Source: Escherichia coli (GTDB lineage: Bacteria > Pseudomonadota > Gammaproteobacteria > Enterobacterales > Enterobacteriaceae). Taken from it: DNA of 64,000 nt. The notes under the pieces were generated by a model. The model did not search any database. It was not told the origin of the DNA and was given only the letters and a program-made list of their open reading frames with translations. Within the stretch, counting starts at the first letter, position 1. Each line of letters starts with the position of its first letter. Shown here piece after piece: positions 57,960-59,766 of the stretch. The position numbers and the translations under genes are program-made. Where the stretch lies: the NCBI RefSeq assembly GCF_041886205.1, contig NZ_CP169029.1; one strand, written 5' to 3'.

Positions 57960-58955
57960 TTACGCCAGTACGCCTATTGCCAGCGCACGATCGATAAAAC
58001 GAAATATCAGCTCCAGCTGGGAGCCATACTTCTCTTCAAATGCCACGGTATCCGCATGCAGCTCGTCGTGATGCTTTCTGCACAAAGGCAACACAAAGAG
58101 GTCATGCGCTTTTGTTCCCATTCCACCCTGACCGTGACCTATCAGGTGGTGGGGATCATCAGCAGGCTTTCCACAACATGCACACGGCTGTGTCTTAACC
58201 CAGCGCGTGTACTTTTCATTAACCCAGCGGCGACGTTTTGGGCGTAACATAAAAGACTCCGGCGACTCCGGATCCACTTTCAGCGCCAGCACCTTTTTCG
58301 CTTTATCCTGGATAATGCTGGTGGCAGGAACCGAAGGCACAAGGTCACTTTCCCGGGTGACAGACGGCACAACAGGTTTCGGTAATCTCAGTGCCTTACG
58401 GGCTGCGCTTTCAGGTAAGGCATCCGCCAGGTCATTACGAATCAGCCACCAGCACAGTTCCGGCATTGTCACGGCATGGTTATCATCAAAACCGAGATCC
58501 CGACGGACTACAGACAACACCCAACGGGCACAGTTATCCGTTGCCATTGATTCCAGCCGCTCCGTGAACTGATCACGTAACTGATTATCGCAGTGCCAGC
58601 ACAAACGGATTGCTCCCGGCGCGTGACGCATTGTGGTCATGTTCTCGCTGTGCCAGTCGGAATGAGGCCACTGGCAGCCTTTTTCACGAAGTAACCAGCT
58701 TTCAAGACATTCCACGCCACCAGCACGACGGATCACTGCCTCATTGCGGAACACGGCCCGAACGGCAGGATCATCCGCCAGCGGTTGTGATGCCGCCGGA
58801 ACGGCACCACTGGCGAAAGATGAATAACGCTCCGGCTCAGGCTCCAGCAGGACACGCCCCTGCATAAACAGGGGCATCAGCTCTGAACCTGGCCTGAACA
58901 ATACGATCCCCATACGCGGGGCAATTTCAGGGGTCAGTAGTGCTCTCACGGTCAC
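57960..58955 (-). CDS. DUF968-family protein (YdfU-like) with C-terminal HNH-like Cys/His motif
   Basis: 331 aa; C-terminus CACCGKPADDPHHLIGHGQGGMGTKAHDLFVLPLCRKHHDELH. Confidence 0.55.
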   Translation of the reverse strand: MTVRALLTPEIAPRMGIVLFRPGSELMPLFMQGRVLLEPEPERYSSFASGAVPAASQPLADDPAVRAVFRNEAVIRRAGGVECLESWLLREKGCQWPHSDWHSENMTTMRHAPGAIRLCWHCDNQLRDQFTERLESMATDNCARWVLSVVRRDLGFDDNHAVTMPELCWWLIRNDLADALPESAARKALRLPKPVVPSVTRESDLVPSVPATSIIQDKAKKVLALKVDPESPESFMLRPKRRRWVNEKYTRWVKTQPCACCGKPADDPHHLIGHGQGGMGTKAHDLFVLPLCRKHHDELHADTVAFEEKYGSQLELIFRFIDRALAIGVLA

Positions 58956-58956
58956 C

Positions 58957-59766
58957 TCAATGAACGGTATCGAGCAGCTTTAACAGCTCAGGGAATCGGG
59001 ATTCGAAGAAATGCGGCTGCGTCTCGCGCGGATTTGCGGGACTGGTGATGTTCTTGCCGAACATGCAACCTTTCGCTGTCAGCGACCAGAATTTTTTGAT
59101 GTTGTTAATCGCGGTACGGCTGTATCGTTCGCGCTGCTCGACGATCCCCAGCTTCACCATCTGGTGATATGCCTGATTAGCCGTCAGGCGGATACCATAC
59201 TGTTTCAGCAGTGCACTCAGTGACAGTGTCGGGCGACTTGAGCCATCAGGCGCGTCAGCAGGAGCATCAATGGCATAGCGCGGTGCCAGATTCGGTAAGC
59301 CAACAGCCTCCTGGAGTTTCTGACAGGCCCCAAGCACAGATGAGTTAGACAGGTTTAACTCCCGACGCATAAAGTCCAGCAGAATCACACCAGCCTGCAT
59401 CTTGTCAGCAGCCTGTCCGGATAATTTTTCCGGTGCACTGGTTACCATATCGAAAGTACGGATCACCTTCAGATGGAATGACGGGCTGATCCACATTGCA
59501 TAGGCATACACCAGTTCTTTGCAGACATACGTCCCCTGGTTATTTCCGCCATTAATGACGCTAACTGGTTGATTTTGTTCCAGAGGCGTAATTCCACCCT
59601 CGGTGAAAAGTTGTTCAATCAATTCACAGGTTTGCTTATTGGAGAGCCAGTATTTCGGGCGGTTTTTTTGTTCTCCCCCGGCTGCCCTGTGCAGATCGTT
59701 CAGGCTGTAACGCCCATAAGCATCACGACGAACTTCAATACCATCAATGACCATCAGATTATTCAT
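58957..59766 (-). CDS. KilA-N domain protein
   Basis: N-terminus MNNLMVIDGIEVRRDAYGRYSLNDLHRAAGG... typical of KilA-N. Confidence 0.6.
   Translation of the reverse strand: MNNLMVIDGIEVRRDAYGRYSLNDLHRAAGGEQKNRPKYWLSNKQTCELIEQLFTEGGITPLEQNQPVSVINGGNNQGTYVCKELVYAYAMWISPSFHLKVIRTFDMVTSAPEKLSGQAADKMQAGVILLDFMRRELNLSNSSVLGACQKLQEAVGLPNLAPRYAIDAPADAPDGSSRPTLSLSALLKQYGIRLTANQAYHQMVKLGIVEQRERYSRTAINNIKKFWSLTAKGCMFGKNITSPANPRETQPHFFESRFPELLKLLDTVH

Follow-up and report, generated by a model that had tools for sequence, protein, structure and literature searches.

Predicted HNH nuclease and KilA-N protein genes between rusA and Q in the nin-like region of an Escherichia coli prophage

Which functions could be encoded by two adjacent prophage genes, one for a DUF968 protein and one for a KilA-N protein, that separate rusA from the Q antiterminator gene in Escherichia coli? 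An earlier note, based on the letters of the window (the whole 64,000-nucleotide stretch of contig NZ_CP169029.1 that was analyzed), had placed both genes at this site, described them as poorly characterised and drawn attention to an HNH-like Cys/His-rich motif at the end of the DUF968 protein. The placement is borne out by the ORF coordinates and by Pfam family matches well beyond chance (Table 1). The description as poorly characterised stands in part: a literature search on DUF968, ydfU and KilA-N found no functional study or nuclease assay of these enterobacterial proteins, but DUF968 itself had already been assigned by Jablonska et al., together with DUF1364/YbcO, to group 7 of the His-Me finger nucleases, with a proposed role in recombination (PMC5714182).

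Two genes in a nin-like region

The ORF listing of the window shows the KilA-N and DUF968 genes, both on the minus strand, flanked by rusA and the Q antiterminator gene; they form part of the nin-like region in an early-right operon of lambdoid type. The operon appears tightly packed, in the order replication gene, PerC-like gene, LexA-DBD-like gene, rusA, KilA-N, DUF968 and Q, and a gap of 13 nt separates the DUF968 stop codon from the Q gene. Between rusA and Q, no terminator-like site as strong as the one following Q was detected, only short weak stems within coding sequences; phage SfV has a terminator annotated at the position equivalent to the window's terminator after Q. A promoter scan returned sites no more numerous than in shuffled sequence, and Rfam gave no match in 54000-64000. 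We infer that both genes belong to the delayed-early set of a lambdoid prophage resembling SfV and that their rightward transcription comes from the immunity region.

Table 1. Features of the rusA–Q interval and its neighbours (positions in the window)
Feature	Position	Strand	Details
Intrinsic terminator downstream of Q, tR'-like, end of early-right operon	57065-57086	-	9-bp stem, 5 GC pairs, T-rich tail
Q-type late-gene antiterminator gene, downstream neighbour	57194-57946	-	250 aa; Pfam Antiterm E 1.9e-53; PHROG 127 E 1.1e-108
DUF968 / YdfU-type gene (= SfV orf45)	57960-58949	-	329 aa + stop; Pfam DUF968 E 2.8e-81; PHROG 96 'HNH endonuclease', full length, E 3.9e-177
Predicted HNH / His-Me finger catalytic core, residues 250-300	58050-58202	-	zinc ligands C256, C259, C290, H293; motif H267-H268...D283...H294...H298
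N-terminal Cys/His module, residues 92-125	58575-58676	-	proposed ligands C92, H100, C117, C120 + W118-x-x-D121-N122
KilA-N/DUF968 junction	58950-58960	-	KilA-N TGA stop overlaps GAGG Shine-Dalgarno, 5 nt before DUF968 GTG
KilA-N protein gene (= SfV orf44)	58957-59766	-	269 aa + stop, ATG; Pfam KilA-N E 6.2e-27; PHROG 129, full length, E 2e-128
Conserved C-terminal alpha/beta domain of KilA-N protein, residues 180-269	58960-59229	-	pLDDT 83-95; order beta-alpha-alpha-beta4-alpha
KilA-N / APSES-like DNA-binding domain, residues 1-110	59437-59766	-	Pfam KilA-N (PF04383), residues 7-109
rusA, RusA-family Holliday-junction resolvase gene, upstream neighbour	59786-60175	-	129 aa; Pfam RusA E 5.2e-14; PHROG 34 E 2.7e-56

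For the DUF968 gene, the ORF listing offers a longer reading (57960-58955, 331 aa, GTG start), whose start at 58955 seems to lie two codons upstream of the true one. A second GTG, at 58949, is the more likely start and yields a protein of 329 aa, since it is preceded at 5 bases by GAGG, NCBI-named homologues are also 329 aa long and the match to the PHROG 96 profile starts only with residue 3 of the longer ORF. The arrangement of stop codon, ribosome-binding site and start at the junction suggests that translation of DUF968 is likely coupled to that of KilA-N. Orthologous KilA-N/DUF968 pairs overlap by 4 nt in Yersinia YeP1 and Providencia PSTCR8lys.

A predicted HNH nuclease with a second Cys/His site

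The Pfam family DUF968 (PF06147) matches residues 162-328 of the protein with 272.1 bits against a cut-off of 27.8, covering profile positions 2-171 of 171. HNHc_6 (PF16784) scores 26.9 bits against a cut-off of 26.6, and only positions 123-184 of its 204, the HNH part, are matched; an NCBIfam search gave no family for either the DUF968 or the KilA-N protein. The Cys/His-rich C-terminal sequence reads QPCACCGKPADDPHHLIGHGQGGMGTKAHDLFVLPLCRKHHDELH. In the AlphaFold model (mean pLDDT 90.8), residues 265-299 form a beta-beta-alpha element with the beta-beta-alpha-metal fold of the His-Me finger (HNH) superfamily, including a catalytic histidine that ends strand 1 and the metal-binding His/Asn position of the helix (H267-H268, D283, H294, H298). 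None of the catalytic or zinc residues is missing from the window protein, and conservation of each among 40 homologues is 80% or higher, for most of them above 90%. Residue pattern and model together point to a complete predicted His-Me (HNH) nuclease domain at the C-terminus, with a colicin-like motif and a CCCH zinc knuckle. The HNH-like motif of the earlier note is therefore present with its zinc and active-site residues intact, and the structure prediction suggested there as a check, with absence of a nuclease fold as the adverse outcome, returned such a fold. The YdfU-type protein would accordingly be read as a metal-dependent His-Me finger endonuclease whose last ~80 residues hold the CCCH knuckle and the H-H...D...H...H site. 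Some family members lack the catalytic histidines (P0310, P0312, P0371) and lie in a different genomic context, among Ead/Ea22 genes; their loss implies that the fold can persist without catalysis.

Among characterised nucleases, Staphylococcus phage PhiNM1 Gp16 is 41% identical to the window HNH domain over 59 aa (E 2e-10). Gp16 is a RecA-interacting, RecA-dependent nickase, and its growth inhibition is lost or weakened by mutating C148, H157, C181, H184, H185 or H189 (PMC12817073). All six residues are conserved in the window protein, as C259, H268, C290, H293, H294 and H298, respectively, within a shared CxxC...H...CxxHH...H pattern. Each protein matches the other's Pfam model, Gp16 (L019:4052-4720) scoring 389 bits with HNHc_6 and 29.1 bits with DUF968, and both genes are early or delayed-early and located in replication/recombination regions that also encode RusA. 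The two differ at the N-terminus, where Gp16 has a NinB/Orf-like domain, an HNHc_6 feature that the window protein does not share. The RecA-dependent HNH endonuclease Ref of phage P1 (PDB 3plw) has a disordered basic N-terminus (PMC4330346), in contrast to the folded N-terminal region of the window protein. Because this part differs from both Gp16 and Ref, RecA dependence is not simply transferable to the DUF968 protein. The Pfam family RecA_dep_nuc (PF16786) gave no match to the window protein at E <= 0.01; a precomputed match to this family exists for only one distant homologue (P0088).

The likeness of Ref and YbcO to the window protein is structural and marginal in sequence (phmmer E 1.2; full-length profile, none; C-domain profile, E 0.02), and the C-domain profile retrieved YbcO at this value, followed only by other HNH proteins. 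YbcO of DLP12 (DUF1364, PDB 3g27) is a 96-aa single domain without the whole N-terminal region, and its function is likewise putative. The structure-specific endonuclease Rap (NinG) of phage lambda occupies the same genomic slot, in the nin region shortly before Q, and falls into group 24 of the one superfamily that includes DUF968 as group 7 (PMC5714182). Rap/NinG (PF05766) nevertheless represents a different Pfam family and architecture, and the NinG model does not match the window protein; both proteins could plausibly act on recombination intermediates.

The N-terminal region of ~250 residues appears to be specific to the enterobacterial and Vibrio type and contains a second conserved four-ligand Cys/His site, a modestly new point that had previously gone unremarked. 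In 40 full-length homologues, C92 is conserved in 39, C or H at position 100 in 39, C117 in all 40 and H or C at position 120 in all 40; the corresponding counts for representative clusters are 82/83, 81/85, 81/81 and 81/82. The model places strands at 104-109 and 112-117, followed by a helix at 118-124, and hhalign aligned the profile of this module collinearly with the HNH profile (P 0.0014). These data suggest that a beta hairpin followed by a helix carries a predicted second zinc site; this beta-beta-alpha element, devoid of catalytic histidines, may have arisen as a degenerate HNH copy. It may serve as a structural zinc module for recognition of a substrate or partner. A Foldseek search of the PDB with the whole DUF968 model returned nothing significant (best E 0.15), and thus no solved relative was identified for the N-terminal ~250 residues. 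The full-length profile had no hits among PDB sequences, and alpha-amylases, retrieved from the PDB by the N-module profile at E ~0.9, were judged a chance match.

A two-domain KilA-N protein

The N-terminal domain of the second protein exceeds the gathering threshold of KilA-N (PF04383), is predicted to adopt the APSES DNA-binding fold and shares 42% identity with the P1 KilA N-terminus. The KilA-N assignment of the earlier note is upheld by this identity, together with the Pfam E-value of 6.2e-27 and the predicted fold. The C-terminal alpha/beta domain contains the invariant residues R214, S216, F226, G233, G237, N239 and P243. Residues 111-269 had no Pfam match at E <= 1 and no NCBIfam match. 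The same domain is also joined C-terminally to Bro-N in Pseudomonas phage BR141a, and to Rha in both Klebsiella LASTA and Ruminococcus phiRg519T2, a distribution that marks it as a mobile module without a Pfam family.

A divergent ANT/KilAC domain (PF03374) was considered and rejected, as there was no Pfam match and hhalign against five ANT domains gave P 0.086 over 32 columns; in having a C-terminal domain other than ANT/KilAC, the window protein differs from P1 KilA, fungal APSES proteins (Mbp1/Swi4) and Bro/Rha/Ant proteins. None of the solved structures convincingly matches this domain. The KilA-N profile retrieved CHMP3 from the PDB at E ~0.003 over a helical stretch, and this hit was judged spurious because it is a compositional, helical match straddling two domains. 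We propose that the KilA-N protein, with its two domains, belongs with Bro, Rha, KilA and Ant in the shuffled 'antirepressor-like' class of DNA-binding proteins; most likely it binds phage or host DNA and modulates lytic development rather than acting as an enzyme.

Possible roles and distribution of the gene pair

As a whole, the locus is best explained by a delayed-early HNH nickase together with a two-domain DNA-binding modulator of lytic development, a reading we consider probable on balance. By analogy with Gp16, P1 Ref and lambda Rap, the DUF968 protein would most likely nick DNA at recombination/replication intermediates during lytic growth, and this nicking may be stimulated by RecA and complement the adjacent RusA resolvase. 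The phage already possesses RusA, and a second junction nuclease may seem redundant, which is a point against a recombination nuclease. A more specific version, offered tentatively as rather less likely than not, is that YdfU-type DUF968 is a 'tandem HNH' protein, whose dead but zinc-binding N-module (C92, C/H100, C117, H/C120), on recognising a DNA structure or a partner, would license the C-terminal HNH domain to nick recombination/replication intermediates. RecA would be one candidate partner, the KilA-N or Rha-ANT protein encoded by the translationally coupled gene another. If so, a very common enterobacterial prophage gene would encode a programmable nickase that depends on RecA or a partner, in analogy to P1 Ref and PhiNM1 Gp16.

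Nuclease activity could also be directed at other targets. An HNH nickase that acts mainly as a host-takeover or conflict effector, damaging or condensing host DNA and so shutting down host replication, or attacking competing phages, would fit the observation that Gp16, with the same active-site residues, stops Staphylococcus aureus growth and suppresses host replication when overexpressed (PMC12817073), and that P1 Ref enhances ciprofloxacin lethality (PMC4713147). Such a role overlaps mechanistically with the preferred explanation, from which it differs only in its biological target, and we regard it as unlikely: the gene lies in a lytic delayed-early operon beside rusA and Q rather than in a moron or immunity-region position, PADLOC gives no defence-family match for the DUF968 protein, and the retention of the gene by 69% of complete E. 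coli genomes fits a leaky toxin less easily, although the gene would be silent under repression. It is improbable that the protein is instead a non-catalytic DNA-binding or regulatory protein, with zinc fingers that bind DNA or the Q/antitermination machinery and a vestigial HNH motif. In favour of such a non-catalytic role are homologues that keep the fold without catalytic histidines, a related Arsenophonus member annotated as 'phage transcriptional regulator' (PMC5714182), the position of the gene directly before Q in most contexts and the resemblance of the N-module to an HNH copy stripped of catalytic residues. The window protein and more than 90% of homologues, however, retain H267, H268, D283, H294 and H298, which argues for purifying selection on catalysis, and the histidine-less members belong to the different, Ead/Ea22-associated context.

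The adjacency of the two genes raises the further question of whether they form a two-component unit, in which a DNA-binding subunit (KilA-N plus the C-terminal domain, replaceable by Rha plus ANT) targets or regulates the nuclease. The two genes lie next to each other or overlap in E. coli/SfV, in Yersinia YeP1 and in Providencia PSTCR8lys, at ~60% identity, and in two more distant lineages the slot is occupied by the gene for a Rha+ANT protein, with a 4-nt overlap between its stop and the start of DUF968. KilA-N+DUF968 fusion proteins are also on record (P0014, P0047, P0064), but they occur rarely and may stem from indels or assembly errors, as the two frames are only one base apart. Since overlaps of 4 nt are a general feature of phage operons, the nin region commonly houses antirepressor-like genes and the linkage is absent in three lineages (L012, L015, L016), we consider a dedicated unit distinctly unlikely, and an obligatory pair was rejected as a general rule, the three lineages having no partner. 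P1 KilA, to which the N-domain is related, was named for its lethality. A KilA-N-like N-domain is also present in BstA (PMC8585504), and PADLOC reported a weak match to PDC-S22 at KilA-N residues 73-108; it is nonetheless highly improbable that the KilA-N protein excludes other phages by BstA-like abortive infection or toxicity. The PDC-S22 match spans only 36 residues inside the shared KilA-N domain, and the C-terminal domain, not known to be related to BstA, is common to Bro-N and Rha 'antirepressor-like' proteins. A prophage defence gene such as bstA needs expression from the lysogen (PMC8585504), but the KilA-N gene is part of a repressed lytic operon, and the combination of a defence-model match and a lysogen-expressed position that characterises the BstA family was not found for this gene of the nin region, between rusA and Q.

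Apart from these functional questions, the finding is an ordinary one: both genes are intact, very common and already recognised bioinformatically. Phage SfV (orf44/orf45), Stx2c phages and mEp460 carry the block at 97-98% identity, and at least part of it occurs in 3756 of the 5426 complete E. coli genomes (69%), defective prophages included. Near-identity to SfV genes, presence in most E. coli genomes and a family already placed among His-Me finger nucleases leave little discovery value. The modest practical value is that the DUF968 gene, among the commonest uncharacterised prophage genes of E. coli, Shigella and Salmonella, Stx-converting phages included, now has a concrete, testable hypothesis, namely a Gp16/Ref-like nickase (H268, H294, H298) with a CCCH zinc site and a second N-terminal Cys/His site. 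If it acts on RecA-bound or branched DNA, the nuclease could influence recombination among co-resident lambdoid prophages, the process by which Stx phages diversify.

Synteny was assessed on the contigs encoding eight diverse DUF968 representatives. These homologues (27-50% identity) are located between replication genes and Q, often beside RusA. The closest relatives are those of SfV, SfII, SfIV, mEp460, Stx2c phages and YdfU of the K-12 Qin prophage, and homologues carry the database names 'DUF968 domain-containing protein' and 'YdfU family protein'. SfV shares the gene order rusA–KilA-N–DUF968–Q without any substantive difference, its orf45 being 99.7% identical to the window DUF968 protein and its orf44 98.5% identical to the KilA-N protein (tblastn). 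SfV orf45 has another annotated start, giving 305 aa, and the window is unlike SfV in the modules around the block (dam, methyltransferase, lysis cassette).

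The KilA-N and DUF968 genes in the nin region

In the window, the rusA, KilA-N, DUF968 (YdfU-type) and antiterminator Q genes are tightly packed in one row on the minus strand of the ORF listing. The earlier note had placed the DUF968 and KilA-N genes between Q and rusA, and ORFs, Pfam and PHROGs agree with its coordinates. PHROG 96 "HNH endonuclease" covers the DUF968 protein end to end, HNHc_6 of Pfam also matches it at threshold level only, and the KilA-N protein matches PHROG 129 "transcriptional regulator". The KilA-N stop codon TGA overlaps a GAGG, and a second GTG lies five bases beyond it; given this spacing and the 329-aa length of NCBI-named homologues, the DUF968 start is likely 58949 rather than 58955, and residues are numbered here on the 329-aa form. 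The gene junctions suggest translational coupling.

Coordinates of the gene block, its surroundings and the Gp16 gene
Feature	Coordinates	Strand	Evidence or remark
RusA-family gene rusA (129 aa)	59786-60175	-	ORF; Pfam RusA E 5.2e-14
KilA-N gene (269 aa)	58957-59766	-	ORF; Pfam KilA-N E 6.2e-27, residues 7-109
DUF968 gene, longest ORF 331 aa, GTG start	57960-58955	-	Pfam DUF968 E 2.8e-81, residues 162-328
Antiterminator Q gene (250 aa)	57194-57946	-	ORF; Pfam E 1.9e-53
Q-side terminator, 9-bp stem + T tract	57065-57086	-	~108 nt past Q stop
LexA_DNA_bind-only protein (119 aa)	60172-60531	-	Pfam E 3.7e-19
PerC-like transcriptional activator homologue	60498-60992	-	Pfam PerC E 7.4e-10
HTH_36 O-like replication gene	60989-61990	-	Carries tandem repeat 61558-61681
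Second HNH endonuclease gene	54515-54865	-	Pfam HNH E 2.2e-16, canonical
Small (Terminase_4) and large terminase genes	53894-54397 and 52164-53897	-	Directly 3' of second HNH gene
PhiNM1 Gp16 gene	L019:4052-4720		Located in PhiNM1 record (L019)

Upstream of rusA, the same operon encodes, by Pfam, a protein consisting of a LexA DNA-binding domain only, a PerC-like protein and an HTH_36 replication protein, and the region is topped by an immunity module of CII-like, Cro-like and divergent CI-like S24 repressor genes. Q is followed on its 3' side by a strong intrinsic terminator, the lysis cassette (holin/holin/GH19-endolysin/spanin), an HNH gene and the terminase genes. From this neighborhood of immunity module, operon order, Q and terminator it follows that the KilA-N and DUF968 genes belong to the nin region of a lambdoid-type early region and are of the delayed-early class. 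This terminator likely corresponds to tR', the site that Q antiterminates. A mechanically called ORF of 108 aa (56786-57112, minus strand) contains the terminator and matches no family, so its 5' part is probably non-coding.

The LexA-domain gene, just 5' of rusA, is kept in SfV (orf42) and many E. coli prophages; its product, which lacks an S24 peptidase domain, may mimic LexA without being cleavable. The PerC-like gene of the nin region shares 34 nt with the start of the LexA-domain gene. The repeat in the replication gene (a 15-bp unit eight times in tandem, or a 30-bp unit four times, with 95% matches) codes for a DPSKSDASKS repeat and probably represents origin iterons, likened to those of lambda O. 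The HNH of the second endonuclease gene is distinct from that of DUF968, and its position before the terminase genes follows the pattern of HK97 gp74, where an HNH protein helps cos cleavage.

HNH domain and second Cys/His site of the DUF968 protein

Across 40 full-length homologues (25-86% identity to the query), the C-terminus conserves the pattern P255-C256-x-x-C259-G...D-D-P-H267-H268-x-I-G-H-G...K280-A-H-D283...P288-L-C290-R-x-H293-H294-x-E-L-H298. Compared with the colicin E9 active-site spacing, this sequence pattern reads as a CCCH zinc knuckle combined with a colicin-E9-type H-H...N/D...H...H active site. The AlphaFold2 model built on the same alignment is confident (mean pLDDT 90.8), and its strands 265-268 and 286-289 and helix 291-299 form the β-β-α-metal topology, so that the structure prediction suggested as a check of the "HNH-like" Cys/His-rich C-terminus returns a nuclease fold. 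The sequence-level tie to solved structures is weak: YbcO gives E 1.2 with the single sequence and E 0.02 with the C-domain profile, and has no match to the full-length DUF968 profile.

A solid link exists to an enzyme that has been studied experimentally. Gp16 of Staphylococcus phage PhiNM1, described as a RecA-interacting nickase (PMC12817073), scores 389 bits for HNHc_6 and 29.1 bits, above threshold, for DUF968 on Pfam, and BLASTP aligns 59 of its residues to the window DUF968 protein at 41% identity (E 2e-10). Mutating Gp16 C148, C181, H184, H157, H185 or H189 abolishes or weakens growth inhibition (PMC12817073), and these residues align to DUF968 C259, C290, H293, H268, H294 and H298, respectively; this residue-by-residue correspondence is one of two modestly new points. 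Motif, fold and Gp16 homology bear out the HNH-like reading of the earlier note, and the finding is real, but the literature had it already: the family was classed as a His-Me finger nuclease beforehand, DUF968 and DUF1364/YbcO being assigned to group 7 with a proposed recombination role (Jablonska et al.; PMC5714182), and HNH-bearing DUF968 members exist in Gram-positive phages (Curtis et al.; PMC4118853).

The other modestly new point is a conserved second Cys/His site in the N-terminal half. The first ~250 residues match no family in Pfam or NCBIfam, and no significant structural neighbor was found for them. Among the 40 homologues, C92 is kept in 39/40, C or H at position 100 in 39/40, C117 in 40/40 and H or C at position 120 in 40/40, with W118, D121 and N122 conserved too; in representative clusters covering the region the counts are 82/83, 81/85, 81/81 and 81/82, equal to or above those of the C-terminal zinc ligands. 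As Cys-His interchange at two of four positions is a metal-ligand signature, these residues are read as metal ligands; the AlphaFold2 model carries them on β-hairpin 104-117, followed by helix 118-124. Profile-profile comparison aligns this module collinearly with the HNH module (P 0.0014 over 49 columns; P 0.013-0.024 in a cruder run), pairing C92 with C256, C117 with C290 and residue 120 with H293, with Asp and Arg where catalytic H294 and H298 would fall. Taken together, this evidence is suggestive, not conclusive: the N-terminal module is probably a second structural zinc site and may have arisen as a degenerate copy of the HNH one.

The KilA-N protein and proposed roles of both proteins

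The KilA-N protein continues through a helical linker (116-155) and a low-complexity region (156-179) into a C-terminal α/β domain (180-266), which is well predicted and has invariant R214, S216, F226, G233, G237, N239 and P243. This domain has no Pfam family, and its identity with ANT/KilAC was not demonstrable (hhalign P 0.086). It recurs behind a Bro-N domain in a Pseudomonas phage, behind Rha domains in phages of Klebsiella and Ruminococcus, and within Paenibacillus phage "antirepressor" proteins; judged by its domains, the protein has the classic domain-shuffled architecture of phage DNA-binding, antirepressor-like proteins. Defence-system models matched only a 36-residue fragment, and a literature search found no experimental work on this KilA-N protein.

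Upon prophage induction or infection, the early-right promoter transcript would run through rusA, KilA-N, DUF968 and Q. The DUF968 protein is most likely an HNH nickase, stabilised by zinc and dependent on Mg/Mn, that would act on branched or RecA-bound DNA while the phage genome replicates and recombines, complementing RusA; lambda Rap/NinG and DLP12 YbcO occupy the same slot. An active nuclease in DNA metabolism is the somewhat favored reading; RecA dependence in particular seems rather unlikely. The KilA-N protein most likely would bind DNA and modulate lytic development; targeting of the nuclease, an antirepressor activity and toxicity are all possible roles. A BstA-like role, with expression in the lysogen, is argued against by the position of its gene in the lytic operon. 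All that is said here of catalysis, substrates, partners and phenotypes is inferred.

Origin, prevalence and synteny

Phage SfV matches the 3.2-kb Q-to-rusA block at 97.6% identity, and Stx2c-converting phages, phiSTEC1575 and mEp460 do so at 97-98%. SfV orf45 and orf44 encode the DUF968 and KilA-N proteins with 99.7% and 98.5% identity (GenBank U82619), and the structural half of the window likewise matches SfV-type myoviruses. Some match to the block occurs in 3756/5426 complete E. coli genomes and at least 80% of it in 1033/5426; both genes are ordinary, already known and not rare, and are found in most E. coli genomes. Comparison of SfV (L001) with window 55000-57200 shows a 97-98% identical nin block, whereas the adjoining modules differ: the SfV dam/PAPS-reductase-like orf41 and orf47/orf48 methyltransferase are missing from the window, and the lysis cassette (Phage_holin_8, Phage_holin_3_7, GH19-type endolysin) is unlike that of SfV. 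These differences are typical lambdoid mosaicism.

Phages YeP1 (Yersinia) and PSTCR8lys (Providencia), at ~60% identity, repeat the adjacency: the KilA-N gene runs straight into the YdfU-type gene, the two overlapping by 4 nt, and the annotated YeP1 order is rusA-KilA-N-YdfU-Q. Two remoter lineages (46% and 40% identity) carry rusA-[Rha+ANT protein]-DUF968-Q, again with a 4-nt overlap, and a further lineage has an ANT protein one small gene 5' of DUF968. Three lineages lack an antirepressor-like partner beside DUF968, in the contexts O-P-DUF968-rusA-Q, O-P-small ORF-DUF968-...-Q and a Vibrio-type arrangement. The pairing is therefore frequent in closer relatives but not universal, and the robust context is a nin-region position after the replication genes and before Q, often adjoining RusA.

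A full-length subgroup (L017 3501-4496, also L018; P0310, P0312, P0371) has lost the catalytic H-H and helix histidines while keeping the N-terminal Cys/His site and probably comprises non-catalytic derivatives; one of these lies among Ead/Ea22 genes, not beside Q. Database proteins include KilA-N-DUF968 fusions (401-498 aa) and RusA-KilA-N fusions (401-405 aa) (P0014, P0047, P0060, P0064, P0132-P0143), which could be genuine or indel/assembly artefacts of closely abutting genes. In a related prophage (L009 5168-6699), Ser/Thr protein kinase and PP2C phosphatase genes occupy a moron-like position directly after Q and before the holins.
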